Assembly (NCBI GenBank): GCA_009923445.1
Contig: RFTN01000001.1
Span: 4,523-68,522, forward strand
DNA from: a bacterium
GTDB taxonomy: Bacteria > Patescibacteriota > Saccharimonadia > Saccharimonadales > SZUA-47
DNA length: 64,000 bases
Direction of reading: 5' to 3'
Positions 134-43,248 of the stretch are shown here, piece by piece (the stretch's first letter is position 1; each line of letters opens with the position of its first letter). Position numbers and translations under genes: made by a program. The notes beneath the pieces were generated by a model that saw only the letters and a program-made list of their open reading frames with translations, had not been told where the DNA came from and did no database searches.

Positions 134-757
134 TCAGTGATTCTCTTCGTTTAAGCGCGCTAGTATCATGGCAAGTATATCACTAGTGACATCTTCTTGT
201 TTTGGCATTGCATCAATCTCGATTAACAAGCCACGGTCTTTGTAAAATTGTATTACTGGCAAAGTCTTATTGCTAAATTCTAAAAATCGATTCTGTAAAA
301 TGTGCAGTTCTTTATCGTCATGTCTACCACGTTCTGCAAGCTGCCACCGTTTTAAAACTTCATTTTCGGATATTTTTAAGTATATAACTACTTTTATCTC
401 ATGTCCCGATAACGACGCGACCTCTAAAATACTTTTTTCTTCACCACTCCAGCGACCAACACTACTTAAAATTAACGGTTTATTGCGGAACGACGCTTGC
501 TGAAAATAGGGCGAAATAATCTGAATGTATTCGTCAGAAGGGGCTAAGTAGCCCTGTGCGCTTCGTTCTTTGATGTGTTTTGGACCAATGTCACTACGCA
601 ATATGTCGCCGCCACTAATCAGAACACCATCGAGCATACTAGCGAGTTCTTTGCCGTGCGTATCTTTGCCAGCAAACGGTAGTCCAAAAATATTTATAGA
701 CCCCGAACCGAGTAAATGTTTTATGCTTGCAACAATTTTTTTATTTGCGGCTTCCAT
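134..757 (-). CDS. P-loop adenylate-kinase-family protein. Start taken at internal Met; the six-frame ORF extends to 865 but would overlap the hrcA promoter/CIRCE region.
   Basis: GLPFAGKDTHGKEL...ISGGDILR resembles the Adk P-loop plus ISTGDMLR motif. The P-loop lies ~60 aa into the long ORF, so the later Met was chosen. Confidence 0.4.
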   Translation of the reverse strand: MEAANKKIVASIKHLLGSGSINIFGLPFAGKDTHGKELASMLDGVLISGGDILRSDIGPKHIKERSAQGYLAPSDEYIQIISPYFQQASFRNKPLILSSVGRWSGEEKSILEVASLSGHEIKVVIYLKISENEVLKRWQLAERGRHDDKELHILQNRFLEFSNKTLPVIQFYKDRGLLIEIDAMPKQEDVTSDILAMILARLNEENH

Positions 758-802
758 TGAATTAGTATACGTAAGATGTACAACTGTTGCAAACAACTCT
801 GC

Positions 803-829
803 TTGGCACTCTTGTCTATTGACTGCTAA
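803..829 (+). promoter_or_regulatory. Degenerate CIRCE-like inverted repeat (TTGGCACTC-N9-GACTGCTAA) upstream of hrcA
   Basis: 7/9 + 7/9 match to the CIRCE consensus TTAGCACTC-N9-GAGTGCTAA, located 22 nt upstream of the hrcA ATG. Confidence 0.35.
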
Positions 830-850
830 AAGTGTTAAGATATTTGCAGT

Positions 851-1558
851 ATGACCGAGCGCCAAAAAGCAATTTTACGAAACGTTGTCGAGCAATATGC
901 CGAAGTAGCAAGTCCGGTTGGTTCTAATTTGTTAGCTAAAGTCTTTGGTGTAAGCAGTGCTACTATTCGGGCCGAAATGGCCGAACTAGAGAGGCTTGGC
1001 TATATCGAGCAGCCACATACCAGCGCTGGCCGTATTCCTACCGACAAAGGGTATCGTTTTTATGTAAACCATGTGAGCGAGGATCAATCAAAACACATAA
1101 CTAGCCCACGCGCCGAACGAGCGCTCAGTGCCAGGGCAAGTGGGGGTGGCGTGCCGGAGCGCGTTATTCGTAATACGGTCGATACGCTTGTAGAGCTTAC
1201 TCATAACCTAGGTTTGGCAACTATAGGCAACCAGCTGTATATGAGCGGGCTAAGTAACTTGTTTGGCCAACCAGAATTTATGCACCCTGGCCAGGTACAA
1301 GAGGTCGCGCGTTTGCTTGACAACCTAGAGCCGTGGCTACGTGAAGCCGCCCCGAACGAGGCGCTAAGTGTATTTATTGGTGCCGAGAACCCTATTGGTC
1401 GCAACAGTGGCTGTAGTTTAATAATCAGTAAGTTCCGCAGCCCATATAGTGATAAAAGCTTTATTGGTGTACTTGGGCCCACTCGCCAAAGTTACCGAGA
1501 TGTCATGAGTTTAGTTGAGCGCGCCGGTAAAACCCTAGAGGAGTCAATGTATGCCTAA
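851..1558 (+). CDS. hrcA: Heat-inducible transcription repressor HrcA (short form, 235 aa)
   Basis: N-terminal winged-helix region LAKVFGVSSATIRAEMAELERLGYIEQPHTSAGRIPTDKGYRFYV typical of HrcA. Sits in an hrcA-grpE-dnaK operon context. Confidence 0.75.
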   Translation: MTERQKAILRNVVEQYAEVASPVGSNLLAKVFGVSSATIRAEMAELERLGYIEQPHTSAGRIPTDKGYRFYVNHVSEDQSKHITSPRAERALSARASGGGVPERVIRNTVDTLVELTHNLGLATIGNQLYMSGLSNLFGQPEFMHPGQVQEVARLLDNLEPWLREAAPNEALSVFIGAENPIGRNSGCSLIISKFRSPYSDKSFIGVLGPTRQSYRDVMSLVERAGKTLEESMYA

Positions 1559-2389: not shown

Positions 2390-4300
2390 ATGAGTAAAAT
2401 CATCGGAATCGACCTAGGAACAACTAACAGTGCAATGGCAGTTATGCAGTCTGGCAAGCCAGAAATTATTGCTAACAACGAAGGTGCACGCACTACTCCA
2501 AGTGTTGTCGCGGTTAACAAAAAAGGTGAGCGCCTTGTGGGTGCGCTTGCTCGTCGCCAACAAGTGACCAACCCTAAAAACACTGTTTACGAAGTTAAGC
2601 GCCTTATTGGTCGTAACTTTAACGACAAAGAAGTCCAAAAAGACCTTAAACTTATGGGCTACGAAATTGTTAAATCTGGCAACAGTACCAAAGTCAAAAT
2701 GGACGGCAAAGAATACAGCCCTGAAGAAGTCAGTGCAATGATTTTGAGCAAACTCAAAGCAGACGCCGAAGCCTTTTTGGGCGCCCCAGTTACAGAGGCT
2801 GTTATTACTGTACCGGCTTATTTTGATGACAGTCAACGTCAAGCCACTAAAGATGCTGGTAAAATCGCCGGTCTAGAAGTTAAGCGCATTATAAACGAAC
2901 CAACTGCTGCAGCGCTTGCATACGGTCTCGACAAAGAGAAAAAAGGTGACGAAAAAATCGCCGTATTTGACCTTGGTGGCGGTACTTTTGACGTATCTAT
3001 TCTAGAACTTGGTGACGGTGTATTTGAAGTTAAGAGCACTAATGGCGACACTCACCTGGGTGGCGCAGACTTTGATCGTATATTAGTCAATTACTTTGCC
3101 GACGAATTTAAAAAAGAACACGGCATAGACATCACTAAAGACAACGCAGCCATGCAGCGCTTACGAGACGAAGCCGAAAAAGCAAAAATTGAACTTAGTA
3201 GCAGCCAAGAAGTTGACGTAAATCTACCATTCTTGACCGCCGATGCCGACGGTCCTAAGCACTTCGAGCATAAACTATCACGGGCCAAGCTTGAACAACT
3301 AGTGGGCGAGCTTGTTGACAAAACAGCCGAACCATGCAAAAAGGCCTTAAAAGACGCTGGCCTTACCGCTAAAGACATCGACGCCGTTGTACTTGTAGGT
3401 GGTATGACCCGCATGCCTGCCGTTCAAGAAAAGGTCAAAGAAATCTTTGGCAAAGAGCCCATGAAGGGTGTAAACCCCGACGAAGTTGTAGCAGTTGGTG
3501 CTGCAATTCAGGGCGGTGTATTGCAGGGTGATGTTAAAGATGTGTTATTACTTGATGTTACGCCGCTAAGTCTCGGTATAGAGACTATGGGCGGTGTTAG
3601 CACAAAGCTCATCGAGCGCAACACCACCATTCCTACTAGTAAATCAGAAGTATTTAGTACTGCTGCCGATAATCAAAACCAAGTAGAAATTCATGTACTG
3701 CAGGGCGAGCGCGACTTTGCAGCCGACAACAAGTCGCTTGGCCGCTTTATATTAGATGGCATTGCGCCAGCTCCACGTGGTGTGCCGCAAGTAGAGGTTA
3801 CATTTAACCTAGATGCCAACGGTATTTTGAATGTTACGGCCAAAGACAAGGGTACGGGCAAAGAACAAAACATTACCATTCAGGGTTCAGGCGGTCTAGA
3901 CAAGGCCGAGATTGAAAAAATGCGCAAAGACGCTGAGGCACATGCAGAGGACGATAAAAAGAAGCGCGAAGGTGTTGAAGCTAAAAACCAGCTAGACAGC
4001 GCAATTTACCAAGCTGGCAAACTTAAAGACGAGAACAAAGAAAAGATAACCGAAGATGACATTAAAACGCTGGATGAAGCCGTAGAAGCAGCCAAAAAAG
4101 TACAAAGCGACGAAAGTGCCGACAAAGATGCTTACGAAGCTGCAACCAAAGAACTTACCGACAAAATGATGCCAATTGGTGCTAAGTTGTACGAACAGGC
4201 TGCTAAAGATGAAGCTCCAGCCGAAGGCAGCGAGCCTAAAAAAGACGACAAAGATGTTGTTGAAGGCGAAGTCGTAGACGATAAGAAAGAAGATAAATAG
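2390..4300 (+). CDS. dnaK: Chaperone DnaK (Hsp70)
   Basis: [14 protein letters not shown]..., DLGGGTFD and the full Hsp70 architecture. Start placed at the ATG with RBS rather than the upstream GTG of the ORF track. Confidence 0.95.
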
Positions 4301-37899: not shown

Positions 37900-37977
37900 T
37901 GGGGCGAGCTATGGGGATCGAACCCACGACCTTCGGAACCACAACCCGACGCTCTAACCAACTGAGCTAAGCCCGCC
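37900..37977 (-). tRNA. tRNA-His (anticodon GTG) with encoded G-1 and discriminator C
   Basis: Hand-folded: extra 5' G pairing with C73, anticodon loop TTGTGGT. Confidence 0.8.
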
Positions 37978-38039
37978 ATAAACAGGGGTAATTATATCGT
38001 ACTATACGTAAAAAATCTAGACCTTAGGCATTGATAAGG

Positions 38040-38320
38040 TTATATATACACTAAGAATGGATTTGACCTGCGTTCTACGGGCCCAAAACTACTTCACCCC
38101 CCAGTATTCTTCACCCCGACCTTTTTGGTCGGGCGTTCGAACCCCCGATTTTCCAAATAAAAAGCCCGCCTTGCAGACGGACTCTTTATTTGGCACACCA
38201 AGGAGGGATTCGCCTTGCCGGCAAATCAAAAAATAGATTTGCCCACGGCAACCCTTGGGGCTAAAGGGGCGGGGTTAGTCCACTGGACTAACCCGTTCGA
38301 ATCCCAACAAATAAACCAAT
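38040..38320 (-). other. ~280-bp non-coding region packed with short hairpins and degenerate tRNA-like (T-arm/acceptor) fragments. No canonical cloverleaf found.
   Basis: Fragments such as GGCGAATCCCTCCTTGGTGTGCCA (diverged copy of the tRNA-Arg 3' end) and TTCGAACCCCCGA. Perfect hairpins GGTTAGTCC/GGACTAACC and CCCGACC-ttttt-GGTCGGG. Confidence 0.3.
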
Positions 38321-38345
38321 TTAAAAAGCGGTGACAAGCACCGCT
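38321..38345 (-). terminator. Rho-independent terminator immediately after tRNA-Arg(TCT)
   Basis: AGCGGTG-acaag-CACCGCT 7-bp stem followed in minus sense by TTTTTAA. Confidence 0.5.
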
Positions 38346-38353
38346 CCTTAAAT

Positions 38354-38430
38354 TGGTACACCCGGAGGGATTCGAACCCCCGACCTGTGGGATAGAAGCC
38401 CATTGCTCTGTCCAGCTGAGCTACGGGTGC
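38354..38430 (-). tRNA. tRNA-Arg (anticodon TCT), CCA encoded
   Basis: Hand-folded: acceptor GCACCCG/CGGGTGT, anticodon loop CTTCTAT. Confidence 0.85.
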
Positions 38431-38532
38431 ATACCTAGAATAAGATTATAACAGATTATCAAACTGCTACAGTAGTGGCACATCATCAACTACAAAGTAA
38501 AAGACCATGTACGAATACATGGTCTTTTACTA

Positions 38533-38607
38533 TGGTGCGGGTAGAGGGAATCGAACCCACGTCTCAAGTTTGGAAAACTTGCATACTAACCGTTGTACTA
38601 CACCCGC
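38533..38607 (-). tRNA. tRNA-Trp (anticodon CCA), CCA encoded
   Basis: Hand-folded: anticodon loop TTTCCAA, 4-nt variable loop, one U-U mismatch in the T-stem. Confidence 0.7.
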
Positions 38608-38658: not shown

Positions 38659-40188
38659 TTATACATCGTGTAATACAGCAATTTTTGCGCCAAGCTTATT
38701 TAAGCGCTCAGCAATATCTTCATAGCCCCTATTAATAGTGTATACATTGCGTAAAATAGATGTGCCTTTAGCAGCAAGCATTCCAATAAGTAGCAAGCTC
38801 GCTGGCCGTAATGCAGGAGGGCACACGACCTCGGCAGCGATGAATTTTGTCGGCCCCTGTATATACAAACGATGCGGATCGGCCAACTCCACTTGCATTC
38901 CTACCTTGGACATTTCGGTATAGTAAATTGCACGGTTTTCAAACATCCAGTCATGTATAAGCGTTCGACCGTTAATAGCTGCTGCAATGGGAACAAAATA
39001 AGGTAAATTATCTGGGTTAAGACCTGGCCATACATTAGGGTGAATCTTATCCTCGAGAGCCTGAAGCGGTTTTGACCTTTTTAACACAGTAATATCTACG
39101 AGATCAATTAAGCCATTACGCGCTTTGTATGGTTCACTAATATGTAGTTTTACGCCCATTTTATCAAGTTTTAGTAACTCAAGCGCAATCCAGTCAATAG
39201 GTACTCTGCTAATAGTTATTTTAGAATTTGTCGTAATAGCCGTACTTAAAAAGAACATAGCCTCAATTGGGTCTTCTGTGGGAGCATACGTGATGTTCTT
39301 TTTGATGTGCTGTACGCCACTAATACGTAATTGCGTGGTACCAAATCCTTCGATTTTTACACCAAGCTTCATTAAAAAGCCGCATAGGTCTTGCACCATA
39401 TAATCGGCGCTGGCAGATTGAATAACTGTTTGTCCTTGTGTTTTTGCTGCGGCCATAAGAGCATTATTCGTAACGGTATTTCCTTGTTCATACAACACGA
39501 CGCGGTTCGGGTTTTTACGCTTTACATGAATGTCGTAATGACCACGCGGTGATTTAATAGTTACGCCAAACGACTCAAGCACATACATGTGTGGAGCTAC
39601 TGTTCGCTCGCCTAACTTACATCCACCAGCATAAGGTATTTTAAACGCATTTAATTCGTGCATGAGTGGCCCGATTAGCATTAGTACGCTGCGGGTCTTT
39701 CGGGCGGCATCGGCATTTAACGAGTTTATTTTAAGCACTGCTGGTCGTCGTATCTCAAGATCGTTGTTCTCAAGCCATTTAACTTTAACACCTATGCTTT
39801 CGAGCACCTCTATAATTCGGTACACTTCTTCAATTCGCGGAAAAGATACAAACCTTGTAACGCCTAGGTTCAGCAAGCTAGCGCATAACAGCGCAACAGC
39901 CGCATTTTTACTTGTTTTAAGTTCGACTGTTCCCTTAAGTTCATGGCCGCCTTCGATTCGTAAATTTAAACCATCTGAACCTACTTTAATAAGCTGTTTT
40001 TGTAACACCTCGCTTATGCGAGCGAGAGTTTCAAGACTTAGGTTTTGTTTACCTTTTTCGATACGATTAACCGCTGATTGACTTGTGCGTAATTTTGTGG
40101 CGAATTCTGACTGTGTGAGTCCGCGCTCTTGACGAATTTGCTGAATTAAAAGACCAATTTTTTCATTTGAATTTGACATATCGTGCAT
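38659..40188 (-). CDS. murA: XRE-family HTH domain fused to UDP-N-acetylglucosamine 1-carboxyvinyltransferase (MurA)
   Basis: N-terminal ~65 aa LTQSEFATKLRTSQSAVNRIEKGKQNLSLETL (Cro/C1 HTH) followed by a full EPT fold (GTVELKTSKNAAVALLCASLL..., active-site region PYAGGCKLGERTV with conserved Cys). Confidence 0.65.
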   Translation of the reverse strand: MHDMSNSNEKIGLLIQQIRQERGLTQSEFATKLRTSQSAVNRIEKGKQNLSLETLARISEVLQKQLIKVGSDGLNLRIEGGHELKGTVELKTSKNAAVALLCASLLNLGVTRFVSFPRIEEVYRIIEVLESIGVKVKWLENNDLEIRRPAVLKINSLNADAARKTRSVLMLIGPLMHELNAFKIPYAGGCKLGERTVAPHMYVLESFGVTIKSPRGHYDIHVKRKNPNRVVLYEQGNTVTNNALMAAAKTQGQTVIQSASADYMVQDLCGFLMKLGVKIEGFGTTQLRISGVQHIKKNITYAPTEDPIEAMFFLSTAITTNSKITISRVPIDWIALELLKLDKMGVKLHISEPYKARNGLIDLVDITVLKRSKPLQALEDKIHPNVWPGLNPDNLPYFVPIAAAINGRTLIHDWMFENRAIYYTEMSKVGMQVELADPHRLYIQGPTKFIAAEVVCPPALRPASLLLIGMLAAKGTSILRNVYTINRGYEDIAERLNKLGAKIAVLHDV

Positions 40189-40326
40189 TTAATATACCAC
40201 ACCTGGTATATAGTGTTCAAAATTTATTTTAACCTTGTTTGTAATAAGCGCTTAGTTGTATTATTTATGTATGATTTAAATTATTACTGCATCACCTACA
40301 GAAAATAATGATACGAGAGGAATGGT

Positions 40327-41607
40327 ATGCACACTGACGATGCAGTTATAAAACTAATAAAAGCAGAAGAAAAAAGACAACGAGAAGGCCTTGAGCTGAT
40401 ACCAAGTGAAAATTATGTGAGCAGAGCAGTGCTCGATGCTATGGGTAGTGTATTCACAAATAAATATTCTGAAGGCTATATTGGTAAGCGTTATTACGGT
40501 GGCCAAGAAAATACCGATAAAATTGAGCAATTGGCTATTGACCGTGCAAAGGCATTATTTAATTGTGATCATGCCAATGTCCAGCCGCTAGGTGGAGCGA
40601 CGGCAAATGAAATTATGTATAATAGCTGGCTCGAGCCCGGCGACACGGTTATGGCTATGCGTCTTGACCACGGCGGGCACCTTACGCATGGACACCCTGT
40701 TACTTATTTAGCTAAACAGTATAATTTTGTACGTTATGGTATAAAAAATATTGAAACAGGCGAAATTGATTTTGAGGCCTTACGCGCGACCGCTTTAAAA
40801 GAAAAACCAAAGATGCTGCTTGTAGGCTTTTCGGCGTACCCACGTGAGCTGGATTACGCTAAATTTGCAGAAATAGGTAACGAAGTTGGTGCGGTATTGG
40901 TAGCTGACATGGCACATATATCAGGACTTATAGCCGGCAAAGCTCTTAAAAATCCATTTGACTATGGGTTTCATATAATGACTAGCACAACACATAAAAC
41001 CCTTCGTGGTCCTAGGTCGGGAATGATTTTGAGCATGGGAACGGTAAGCAATCCACTAAAAGCACCAGACAAAACTGTAGAAAATTTACCTACACTTATT
41101 GACCGAATGACGTTTCCGGGCATGCAGGGTGGTCCACATATGCACACTATTGCGGCAAAGGCAGTTTGTTTTTACGAAGCAATGCAGCCCGAATACCAAA
41201 ATTACGCACAACAAGTTATTAAAAACGCTAAAAAACTAGCTGATAGCTTAATGGAGCGTGGTTTTAAGCTTATTACAAACGGTACCGACAATCACCTTTT
41301 GCTGTGTGACATTAAAACTAGTTTTGGTATTCACGGAGGAGTAGCAGAAGAAGCCCTTGATGCGATTGGGCTGACTATGAACAAAAATTCCATACCTAAC
41401 GATACCGAGCCGCCGTTTAGACCGAGTGGTCTGCGTTTAGGCACGCCAGCTATGACCACAAGAGGTTTAACTGAAGATCACATGGAGCAAATTGCTGAAT
41501 GGATGCTGCAGGGTATAGTGCACCGTAGTGATGCAAAAAAAATGGCCTCTCTTCGTGCTGAAACAAAAGAATTTGCACTGAAGTTTCCAATGCCAAGTGA
41601 CGTTTAA
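40327..41607 (+). CDS. glyA: Serine hydroxymethyltransferase
   Basis: GGHLTHGHPV and the PLP-lysine region TSTTHKTLRGPR. Confidence 0.9.
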   Translation: MHTDDAVIKLIKAEEKRQREGLELIPSENYVSRAVLDAMGSVFTNKYSEGYIGKRYYGGQENTDKIEQLAIDRAKALFNCDHANVQPLGGATANEIMYNSWLEPGDTVMAMRLDHGGHLTHGHPVTYLAKQYNFVRYGIKNIETGEIDFEALRATALKEKPKMLLVGFSAYPRELDYAKFAEIGNEVGAVLVADMAHISGLIAGKALKNPFDYGFHIMTSTTHKTLRGPRSGMILSMGTVSNPLKAPDKTVENLPTLIDRMTFPGMQGGPHMHTIAAKAVCFYEAMQPEYQNYAQQVIKNAKKLADSLMERGFKLITNGTDNHLLLCDIKTSFGIHGGVAEEALDAIGLTMNKNSIPNDTEPPFRPSGLRLGTPAMTTRGLTEDHMEQIAEWMLQGIVHRSDAKKMASLRAETKEFALKFPMPSDV

Positions 41608-42650
41608 GGCAGCAGTTCGGGTTCTTGTTCTAATGTAACATCAAAAAGTTCTTTTACTTTATCTACAATTTTTTTCTTAAAAGTAATTAGTTGATGTGTT
41701 GACGTTGCATTTTCATTTACTATTACCAGATTTTGGCCGGGCCAAGTTGCCATTCCAGTTTCAGAATCATGAATGCCGCTAAAGCCGGCCTTTTCTATGA
41801 GCCATCCAGCTGCTAATTTGTAAGAACCGTCTGGTAGTTCCCATGATTTTATATCAGGGTATTTAGCTATTAGATTATCGTATTGTTTTTTGGGCACAAT
41901 TGGGTTTGCAAAAAATGATCCGTTGTTTGCGGTTTGACTAGGGTCGGGCAGCTTACTGCTTCTTATTGCAATCACTGCATTACGTAGCGTTGTTGGTGTG
42001 TATTCAGTAATACTATTTTTATCAAGGTATGCTTGTAAAGATTCGTAAAAAGGTGGAGTAGGGGCTTGCTGCGATAGTTTAAATGTGACACTTGTTATGA
42101 TAAATCTACCAGCGTCTGTTGTTTTGAATCTACTTGTTCTGTACCCAAACTGACAGTCACTGCCGGGTATATTTACAAATTCTTTTGTTTGAGTGTCGTA
42201 TGCACGTAGTTCGGTTATAACATTTGCTATTTCTTGGCCGTACGCACCAACATTTTGTACTGGCGTTGCACCAACTGTACCTGGTATGAGACTTAGCGTC
42301 TCTAGACCACTTAGGTTTTTATCTGTAGTTATGAGTACAGCTTCGTCCCAAGAATGACCCGACCCAAATGTTACTGTCGTATCATCATGAAACGTAACGC
42401 TTGCGATATTGTTTACGATCACAAGTCCTTCAAATCCCTTGTCACTCCAAATGATATTACTTCCCGACCCAATAATGCGGTGAGGAATGTTATTTTTTGT
42501 AGCAAATTCTAGTGCTTCTAATAAATCCTCTTCGCTTGTAACTGAGCACACATATCGCGCTGTACCGCCAAGCCGCATAGTACTGTAAAGCTTCAAACTA
42601 ACATTTTCTTGTATGTTCATTGTGTTCAGTATAGCGTGCCGAGTATGCAA
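41604..42650 (-). CDS. murB: UDP-N-acetylenolpyruvoylglucosamine reductase MurB
   Basis: FAD-binding N-terminus (TMRLGGTARY..., IIGSGSNII) and MurB C-terminal domain. Confidence 0.8.
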   Translation of the reverse strand: MHTRHAILNTMNIQENVSLKLYSTMRLGGTARYVCSVTSEEDLLEALEFATKNNIPHRIIGSGSNIIWSDKGFEGLVIVNNIASVTFHDDTTVTFGSGHSWDEAVLITTDKNLSGLETLSLIPGTVGATPVQNVGAYGQEIANVITELRAYDTQTKEFVNIPGSDCQFGYRTSRFKTTDAGRFIITSVTFKLSQQAPTPPFYESLQAYLDKNSITEYTPTTLRNAVIAIRSSKLPDPSQTANNGSFFANPIVPKKQYDNLIAKYPDIKSWELPDGSYKLAAGWLIEKAGFSGIHDSETGMATWPGQNLVIVNENATSTHQLITFKKKIVDKVKELFDVTLEQEPELLP

Positions 42651-42711: not shown

Positions 42712-43248
42712 ATGGGAAATGTACACAATACACCTTTTGCAGGCTTAGGTAGCGCACTACGTGCTATAAGATTACGACAAAAAGAATCATTGCTAGAAGC
42801 CTCTGGGGCAATCGAAGTGAGCGGTGAGCGTTTAGCGCGATTTGAAAATGGCGAACTTCGACCTAGCGACGATATCTTGGAGCTAATAATTTCGCACTAC
42901 AATATGAGTGAGTACGAAGCAGATAAGTTGTGGGACCTGGCTGGTTATAAAAAACAAGAAGATTTTCAGCAGCCAGTTAACCAAGTGCAGACATTTATGC
43001 TAGGACTAGTGCCGCAGCATATAGTGTTTAGCGACGCCGTAGAGGTATCTTTTAACGATTACGGTGTAACTCTTAATTTTATGCAACAATCTTTTCAGCA
43101 AGATCAACAAGTGCCCGTTTCTCGTGTTGGCATGAGCCAGCAGCATGCACAAAAGTTGTTAAACATTCTAACGCAGGCATTACAAGATTCTACACTTAAC
43201 TCTAAAAATCAAAAACAACTCAATCCACCTAAAGATCAGGAAAACTAA
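42712..43248 (+). CDS. XRE-family helix-turn-helix protein
   Basis: LRAIRLRQKESLLEASGAIEVSGERLARFENGE HTH_3-like region. Confidence 0.45.
   Translation: MGNVHNTPFAGLGSALRAIRLRQKESLLEASGAIEVSGERLARFENGELRPSDDILELIISHYNMSEYEADKLWDLAGYKKQEDFQQPVNQVQTFMLGLVPQHIVFSDAVEVSFNDYGVTLNFMQQSFQQDQQVPVSRVGMSQQHAQKLLNILTQALQDSTLNSKNQKQLNPPKDQEN

Follow-up and report, generated by a model that had tools for sequence, protein, structure and literature searches.

MurA catalyses the first committed and essential step of peptidoglycan synthesis and is the target of fosfomycin, and its known control is post-translational. The locus studied here raises the question of whether such an enzyme can also act as the transcriptional repressor of its own gene. 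In a stretch of 64,000 nt of contig RFTN01000001.1 (GenBank assembly GCA_009923445.1; the whole stretch is called the window below), which belongs to a bacterium of the Saccharimonadales, one gene on the minus strand encodes a helix-turn-helix (HTH) domain of the XRE type joined to a MurA. A preliminary description of the gene had suggested that the enzyme doubles as a DNA-binding autoregulator. Comparison with related loci lends support to this idea, in the form of a conserved and gene-specific predicted operator, a covariation of this site with the recognition helix and the constraint acting on the HTH, and we consider it probable that the protein is a bifunctional enzyme-repressor, whose HTH would bind the predicted operator on its own promoter and exert negative autoregulation. 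The fusion itself turned out not to be unusual in Saccharibacteria. The parts of the gene are as follows.

38659..40179, minus strand: HTH-MurA coding sequence (506 aa plus stop codon; ATG at 40179..40177; from the open reading frame and comparison of starts)
39994..40164, minus strand: HTH of the XRE/Cro-C1 type (residues ~6-62 in 506-aa numbering; from Pfam HTH_3 and the AlphaFold helices)
40057..40086, minus strand: predicted recognition helix, T32-S-Q-S-A-V-N-R-I-E41 (from invariance and covariation)
39964..40002, minus strand: flexible tether joining the HTH to the enzyme (residues ~60-72; from low model confidence and low identity)
38662..39963, minus strand: MurA (enolpyruvyl transferase) domain (residues 73-506; from PF00275, PRK09369, Foldseek and the catalytic residues)
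39619..39621, minus strand: codon of the catalytic Cys (Cys187 in 506-aa numbering, Cys190 in 509-aa numbering)

The gene was first described as an in-frame fusion of an HTH to a complete enolpyruvyl transferase spanning 38659..40188, and a Pfam search does find both domains (in 509-aa numbering, HTH_3 at residues 15-65, E 1.3e-14, and EPSP_synthase at residues 79-496, E 1.2e-39). One unbroken open reading frame (ORF) of 509 codons is indeed open over this whole span, but its start has to be moved. Most of 80 related loci have no in-frame start other than the second ATG (40179, MSNSNEK..., 506 aa), and the first ATG (40188) lies just 2 nt past the predicted -10 element; for these two reasons the true start is almost certainly at 40179, and the 509-aa alternative, to which most of the 80 loci offer no equivalent, was dropped. 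A protein retrieved by the protein search that is 100% identical to that of the window (P0001) is also 506 aa long. The resulting layout is an N-terminal XRE/Cro-type HTH, a variable tether of about 10 residues and a complete MurA. An AlphaFold model built from an alignment of 72 homologues has a mean predicted local distance difference test score (pLDDT) of 88.9 and a predicted template modelling score (pTM) of 0.81; the score falls to about 55 in the tether, with a low-confidence stretch at residues ~60-69 and values below 50 at residues 65-68. The tether is also the least conserved part, with 39% identity within Saccharibacteria and 20% with respect to Actinomycetota, as compared to 76-79% and 55-58% in the flanking domains. 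Whether related genomes keep the fusion was a point raised by the preliminary description, and they do so in more than 170 independent loci.

The enzyme moiety has the features of a MurA. The PF00275 match spans positions 2-417 of the 417 of the profile, and the NCBIfam MurA subfamily PRK09369 is matched with 317.5 bits (cutoff 297), while the equivalog TIGR01072 scores 300.8 bits, under its cutoff of 392.7. The closest matches in the Protein Data Bank (PDB) are MurA enzymes (5ujs, E 1e-54), and Foldseek searches with the AlphaFold model gave target-normalised template modelling (TM) scores of 0.87-0.93 to MurA, 0.83 to NikO and about 0.75 to AroA. The active-site Cys that had been noticed at the outset is present as Cys187, and eight further residues were found beside it: the window protein has counterparts of all of E. 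coli K22, N23, R91, C115, R120, D305, R331, R371 and R397, and these nine catalytic or substrate-binding positions are invariant across 72 fusion sequences. In the E. coli MurA reference used for the alignment, every named residue fell on the expected letter. A lack of catalytic residues, which had been named as something that would speak against the fusion being an enzyme, is therefore not what the alignment shows; only the counterpart of E. coli D369 is replaced, by Pro. Since Pro at this position is found throughout this MurA clade, including the unfused P0122, P0124, P0125 and P0133, it is a trait of the clade and not an effect of the fusion. As to a second murA, which had been left as a question, tblastn found no other enolpyruvyl transferase gene in the 64-kb window, and none is annotated in the genome of the cultured relative Southlakia (see below).

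The HTH matches HTH_3 (PF01381) with 54.3 bits (cutoff 23) and PF13560 with 38.6 bits (cutoff 27). Its four helices occupy residues 2-18, 23-29, 34-41 and 49-59 in the AlphaFold model (pLDDT 83-91), and its nearest solved relatives are C.Esp1396I and HipB. Within Saccharibacteria the mean identity is 79% for the HTH and 76% for the enzyme, and the HTH retains 58% identity with respect to Actinomycetota; judged by these sequence identities, the HTH is constrained at least as strongly as the enzyme domain. T32, S33, Q34, S35, A36, R39 and E41 of the predicted recognition helix are invariant in 72 sequences from two phyla, and the whole TSQSAVNRIE string is identical in the Streptomyces fusion. 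A type II antitoxin (HipB/Y4mF/HigA-like) was considered and rejected, the NCBIfam matches being below cutoff (TIGR03070, 47.4 vs. 71.65 bits), with no toxin gene adjacent and the HTH fused to an enzyme.

If the HTH serves autoregulation, a binding site should be found in front of the gene. The region just upstream of the start contains the following elements.

40194..40209: predicted operator, ATACCA-cacc-TGGTAT (perfect 8-nt arms at 40192-40199 and 40204-40211)
40191..40196, minus strand: -10-like hexamer TATATT, preceded by TG as in an extended -10 (from a promoter scan; overlaps the right operator arm)
40215..40220, minus strand: -35-like hexamer TTGAAC, with an 18-nt spacer (from a promoter scan; a consensus match only)
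40180..40190, minus strand: just 11 nt between the -10 and the ATG (no conserved Shine-Dalgarno sequence)

The predicted operator is a 16-bp two-fold symmetric ATAYCA-N4-TGRTAT sequence, whose half-site centres are 10 bp apart, i.e. one helical turn. In a search of the 64-kb window that allowed up to 2 mismatches it was the sole match (for a further sequence from another scan, see below). The upstream regions of 80 Saccharibacteria-type loci were aligned on the start codon, with counts given for 79 of them: an equivalent site is present in 76, and in 71 the best match to ATAYCA-N4-TGRTAT has its arms 4 nt apart and its first base 27-31 nt upstream of the ATG. Across the family, 11-15 nt separate the end of the palindrome from the start codon, and this short distance, together with the lack of a conserved Shine-Dalgarno sequence, suggests that the murA mRNA is probably leaderless or nearly so. 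In the position frequencies of the family, the right arm and the next three bases read TGnTATAaT, which is an extended -10. The left arm is conserved as well (A 100%, T 83%, A 89%, Y 100%, C 89%, where Y is C or T), and it lies in the promoter spacer, where constraint on the sequence is not expected from a promoter role. As a control, all occurrences of TGRTAT in 737 kb of these genomes were inspected: the left arm accompanies 46 of the 57 TGRTAT sites at murA promoters vs. 23 of the 969 found elsewhere (odds ratio 172, p 8e-52).

The site is also almost wholly restricted to the fusion gene. The fetched loci, 1.49 Mb in total, were scanned for perfect ATnnCA-N4-TGnnAT palindromes, and 83 of the 88 that were found lie upstream of the fusion gene, 80 of them within 80 nt of its start and three at 138-167 nt; of the five found elsewhere, four have off-consensus inner bases. 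Five loci (L061, palindrome at 3870; L070, at 1708; and L137, L175 and L176) have no proximal site and carry a perfect palindrome about 140-170 nt upstream, which suggests a longer leader or a mis-assigned start. One other operator-like sequence was seen in the window, ATATCACTAGTGACAT (177..192, plus strand), with one mismatch and inside the ORF 134..865; a single further site is about what chance would give in the window (0.8 expected).

Another 80 loci, drawn from at least 395 relatives, came from a metagenome scan; their GC content is 29-57%. In all but one of them (79/80) the encoded fusion retains each of the nine catalytic residues that were checked, and 79/80 have no second enolpyruvyl transferase gene within 5 kb. 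Among the 78 with enough upstream sequence for scoring, 63 have an upstream AT..CA-N4-TG..AT palindrome, which is a perfect ATATCA/TGATAT in 45 of the 63. The half-sites change together with the recognition helix: all 11 proteins with a TTQS helix, which comprise four helix variants, are paired with ATAGCA in both arms, as compared to 0 of 106 proteins with a TSQS helix. A paired change of this kind, of the recognition helix on one side and of both half-sites on the other, is what direct readout predicts.

The fusion is not confined to one phylum. In an exhaustive search, 1.84 billion representative proteins yielded a 509-aa fusion from Nonomuraea (55% identity), and a follow-up search added Streptomyces, Streptacidiphilus, Actinacidiphila, Peterkaempfera, Marinactinospora and Thermoactinospora; in these seven actinobacterial genera the protein is 53-55% identical to the Saccharibacteria form and is labelled in RefSeq either as 'helix-turn-helix domain-containing protein' or as MurA. 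Loci fetched from Actinomycetota (L081-L093) included Streptomyces, Nonomuraea, Marinactinospora, Thermoactinospora, Peterkaempfera and Streptacidiphilus. In loci from all seven genera, at 70-77% GC, an ATCTCA-N4-TGAGAT palindrome is found at -26 to -28 before the start, followed by a TAnnnT hexamer, 6-7 nt and then the ATG or GTG. This predicted operator has the geometry of that of Saccharibacteria, with half-sites differing at one base. The position and sequence of the site are kept in Saccharibacteria, in other uncultured low-GC lineages and in Actinomycetota. Since the gene neighbourhood is different in every actinobacterial genus sampled, no gene but the fusion gene stays with the operator throughout. 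The variable context hints at horizontal spread, as does the presence of integrase neighbours: the fusion of Nonomuraea (L084) and that of Thermoactinospora (L087) are each closely followed by a phage-type integrase and a small HTH gene. An identity of the actinobacterial fusion with the Streptomyces 'murA2' (SCO5998/vnz_28735) was considered and is not claimed here. The comparison had been prompted by the proximity of aconitase in L081 and L092 (PMC12161575); the published SCO5998 promoter had no match in the fetched actinobacterial loci, and the cloning primer of S. venezuelae murA2 encodes MPTPTAS..., unlike the N-termini of the fusions.

Within Saccharibacteria the fusion is the rule. The best 120 matches among 5.8 billion proteins are all about 506 aa long and contain both domains, and those that carry a name belong to Saccharimonadales or Saccharibacteria. 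In a scan with one genome per species, 80 loci were obtained, nearly all from Saccharibacteria, encoding the full-length fusion at 69-88% identity. HTH-MurA is thus the standard MurA of Saccharibacteria and not a rarity. In the cultured Southlakia epibionticum the counterpart is SEML1_0687 (1524 nt), with PF01381 at 14-65 and PF00275 at 79-494 (PMC10633639, Tables S1 and S2). It is flanked by the same tRNA and divergent serine hydroxymethyltransferase neighbours as the gene of the window, it is the sole 'carboxyvinyltransferase' entry in the genome-wide table, and it was essential by transposon sequencing (Tn-seq) in all three analyses (Wang et al., 2023, PMC10633639); the main text of that paper is silent on SEML1_0687. 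In this cultured Saccharibacterium, then, the fusion is the only annotated MurA and is essential, and the window protein is probably the only MurA of its cell as well.

A minority of the fusions have retained the HTH and lost catalytic residues. P0127, P0128, P0137, P0140, P0142, P0157, P0159 and L100 lack C115 and R120, often also K22, R91 and R371, and keep the HTH. Five catalytically degenerate fusions could be placed in their genomic context, four of which are located as follows.

L095, 4001-5530: degenerate fusion
L097, 5001-6503: degenerate fusion
L099, 3498-5003: degenerate fusion
L100, 1615-3138: degenerate fusion

These four are divergent from an operon containing an unfused murA, and the fifth (L096) sits inside an operon. 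Downstream of the unfused murA comes murB in L095 and L097, and the divergent operon of L099 contains a Mur-ligase gene; behind the fusions of L095, L097 and L099, in turn, lie ddl or Mur-ligase genes. The unfused murA of L095 groups with canonical MurA in the tree. An ATATCA-type operator is kept in L095, L097, L099 and L100, and in L097 a perfect ATATCA-tata-TGATAT lies mid-way in the 60-nt divergent control region. Because these inactive relatives keep both the HTH and the predicted operator, comparison of their sequences argues that a DNA-binding role is maintained by selection even without catalysis. Their predicted targets are genes for peptidoglycan precursors, and they look like dedicated operon regulators.

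In a neighbour-joining tree with bootstrap, all fusions and a few unfused sequences form a clade apart from canonical MurA (100% bootstrap). Four degenerate fusions cluster at 89% on long branches. The fusions of Saccharibacteria and of Actinomycetota are each monophyletic (100%) and are sisters at just 58%, which is why we claim no direction of transfer between the phyla. P0130 (529 aa), a catalytically intact member of the clade, has an N-terminal stretch of about 75 residues that is HTH-like (GSVIRQARIKSGLTLEEIS...) and without Pfam match, and this may be a decaying DNA-binding domain. Its close relatives P0122, P0124 and P0125 are without any HTH, so that the HTH has been lost, or was never acquired, in some lineages of the clade.

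Taken together, these observations are consistent with the following mechanism. The C-terminal 434 residues would be a working MurA, carrying out the first committed reaction of peptidoglycan synthesis, while the N-terminal HTH, presumably dimeric, would bind the 16-bp operator. Each of two HTH domains would take one half-site, the two sites lying a helical turn apart on the spacer and the extended -10, and the occupied operator would block RNA polymerase, so that MurA would repress its own synthesis; DNA binding, dimerisation and the sign of the regulation are what we infer from the arrangement of the site. Such autorepression would hold MurA at a set level, which would be economical for a genome poor in regulators. 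The enzyme body may be a sensor too, occupancy by ligands tuning DNA binding and thereby giving direct feedback from the pathway. That the enzyme body controls DNA binding in this way is something we purely infer. It is plausible because MurA is known to lock onto UDP-N-acetylmuramic acid (UDP-MurNAc): the structural matches include PDB structures of MurA with UDP-MurNAc and the adduct of phosphoenolpyruvate (PEP) with Cys (3su9, 3swd, 8d84 and others). MurA also makes large open/closed movements on substrate binding.

Several points weigh against an enzyme-repressor of this kind. MurA enzymes are usually monomers. An extended -10 accounts fully for the right arm of the Saccharibacteria site, and no covariation is seen between the Y/R mirror positions of the two arms (p 0.64), so that mirror-position covariation was discarded as evidence and the case for an operator in Saccharibacteria rests on the left arm. 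A clear proximal site is missing in 3 of 79 Saccharibacteria and about 15 of 78 metagenome loci, and no operator was found at L096, where the degenerate fusion lies within an operon. The covariation of TTQS with ATAGCA may stem from a single ancestral event. As for a wider regulon, it was considered and rejected, the window holding one weak extra site at chance level and the 1.49 Mb of fetched loci no consensus operator site near murB or glyA.

The same data could be explained in other ways. If the fusion protein bound the palindrome as an activator, or as a neutral architectural factor, the operator would be conserved all the same, for conservation reveals constraint on a binding site and not the sign of the regulation, and some XRE proteins activate from near -35. 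We hold this to be unlikely: the site covers the spacer and the -10 in Saccharibacteria and abuts the TAnnnT hexamer in Actinomycetota, positions that normally exclude RNA polymerase, whereas an activator usually has its site centred at -35 or farther upstream. It is also conceivable that the palindrome is read by another regulator, the fused HTH serving for protein contacts, dimerisation or tethering to the nucleoid. A candidate exists in an XRE-DUF3467 gene that is syntenic in 61 Saccharibacteria loci; yet the actinobacterial loci keep the palindrome though their neighbourhoods share no other gene, and a different regulator is disfavoured since the fusion gene alone always accompanies the operator. 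In addition, the change from ATATCA to ATAGCA follows the recognition helix of the fused HTH itself, and the invariance of TSQSA..R.E across phyla fits sequence-specific readout; this explanation appears quite improbable to us. The palindrome might instead work in the RNA, as a 5' hairpin acting on stability or translation, given that the transcribed arms could pair over 6-8 bp. The predicted fold is unexceptional (z -0.93; 30 of 200 shuffled sequences fold as well or better), the Y/R pair is a C-A mismatch in 20 of 76 loci, and the palindrome overlaps the predicted -10, so that it would go untranscribed from that promoter; an RNA element is hardly to be expected here.

Two further alternatives concern the protein. 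It could be mainly a transcription factor, with a MurA-like domain that is a ligand-sensing pseudoenzyme, and catalysis provided by another gene. Degenerate relatives of this sort exist (P0127, P0128, P0137 and L100), and the TIGR01072 score under cutoff and the Pro at the D369 position point the same way. The remaining catalytic residues are however intact, in the window protein as in 79 of the 80 metagenome relatives, no second transferase gene was found in the window or, in 79 of the 80 metagenome loci, within 5 kb, Pro369 is shared by unfused members of the clade, Southlakia has one such gene and it is essential, and murB is adjacent in the window; we therefore regard a pseudoenzyme as very unlikely. 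The remaining alternative, that an assembly or sequencing error joined a separate small HTH gene to murA by a frameshift, had been a worry from the beginning. It is refuted by the recurrence of the same in-frame fusion in different assemblies, among them the closed Southlakia genome and genomes of Streptomyces and Nonomuraea isolates, and its probability is practically negligible.

The genes around the fusion in the window are the following.

40327..41607, plus strand: glyA, serine hydroxymethyltransferase (Pfam SHMT, E 2e-151; divergent, with a shared intergenic region of 147 nt)
41604..42650, minus strand: murB, next enzyme of the pathway (Pfam FAD_binding_4 and MurB_C; 1.4 kb from the fusion gene)
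42712..43248, plus strand: second XRE-type protein (HTH_31 26.7 bits and DUF3467 23.3 bits, both just below the Pfam cutoffs)
37900..38607, minus strand: tRNA-Gly-TCC, tRNA-Arg-TCT and tRNA-His-GTG (directly downstream of the fusion gene, same strand)

All 78 of the Saccharibacteria loci scored, and Southlakia too, have glyA and the fusion gene in divergent orientation; murB is syntenic in 68 loci. The separate XRE protein next to murB and glyA, which the preliminary description had pointed out, is indeed there, although its Pfam matches are weak. It is divergent from murB across an intergenic region of 61 nt and might regulate murB; no palindrome of the murA operator type was found in this intergenic region. 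It is a separate conserved gene, and nothing ties it to the murA operator. On the other side of the fusion gene no terminator-like site was seen before tRNA-Gly, for which reason murA and tRNA-Gly might be co-transcribed. A hairpin with a 16-bp stem (38496..38531) lies between tRNA-Gly and tRNA-Arg. The Southlakia murA adjoins the same tRNA set.

A working enzyme and an N-terminal DNA-binding domain in one polypeptide are known from BirA, which is biotin ligase and repressor, from PutA, a proline dehydrogenase with a ribbon-helix-helix domain, and from NadR, which combines an HTH with nicotinamide mononucleotide adenylyltransferase. Like these proteins, HTH-MurA appears from its sequence to act on the promoter of a gene of its own pathway, and its enzyme domain would be a natural sensor of the state of the pathway. 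Unlike them, it has the fold of the enolpyruvyl transferases, belongs to the peptidoglycan pathway and has an XRE-type domain for its predicted DNA binding; to our knowledge, no earlier case of an enzyme-repressor involves MurA. With canonical MurA (E. coli/E. cloacae; MurAA and MurAB of Firmicutes) it shares the fold and K22, N23, R91, C115, R120, D305, R371 and R397, with murB adjacent here, while it differs in belonging to a separate clade (about 25-33% identity) and in having Pro at the D369 position, an insertion of about 11 residues and the HTH. In Firmicutes, MurA is controlled post-translationally by ClpCP proteolysis via ReoM/PrkA.

On the DNA-binding side, the resemblance is to lambda and 434 Cro and cI, C.Esp1396I and HipB, which have an HTH_3 domain and two-fold operators with half-sites one helical turn apart over their own promoter, as predicted here. 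These XRE autoregulators (Cro, cI, C proteins, HipB) are dedicated proteins of 70-100 aa that dimerise through the HTH or a short extension, whereas the HTH described here is tethered to a 434-residue essential enzyme and has no toxin or restriction-modification partner gene. BzdR, in which an XRE HTH is joined to a shikimate-kinase-like domain, is similar in combining the HTH with a domain derived from an enzyme, and the window HTH gives a weak match to the BzdR-type PRK08154 of NCBIfam. The enzyme-like domain of BzdR is only a ligand sensor, while the window protein keeps the full catalytic set, so that BzdR is the best analogue of the degenerate HTH-pseudo-MurA relatives. A full-text literature search found no paper on HTH-MurA, its operator or its inactive relatives. 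Public annotation already shows the domain combination; the predicted palindromic operator is new here.

A broader interpretation, which we put forward only tentatively and think somewhat doubtful, is that this MurA clade is a metabolite-sensing transcription factor, in which UDP-N-acetylglucosamine (UDP-GlcNAc), PEP or UDP-MurNAc controls binding to the operator. If so, the first committed step of cell-wall synthesis would have a feedback loop made of one protein. The clade would then form an evolutionary series, from the plain enzyme to the enzyme-repressor of Saccharibacteria, other uncultured lineages and Actinomycetota, and from there to an inactive HTH-pseudo-MurA regulating mur/ddl operons, this last step arising after a canonical murA has come to be present. 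Exchange of the enzyme and its operator as a whole module would account for the 53-55% identity between the fusions of Saccharibacteria and Actinomycetota.

For the more limited and, as we think, probable case of an autoregulating HTH-MurA, a MurA with a built-in repressor and its operator would be a new and very compact way of controlling the flux of cell-wall precursors. The arrangement would be the normal one in Saccharibacteria, epibionts of reduced genome with few regulators, in which the gene is single-copy and essential (Southlakia). It is directly testable, since the module is present in cultivable and genetically tractable Actinomycetota and Southlakia is naturally transformable. The inactive relatives found beside a canonical murA offer a natural experiment of an enzyme becoming a regulator, and the sharing of the module by Saccharibacteria and their host phylum Actinomycetota bears on gene flow in that symbiosis.

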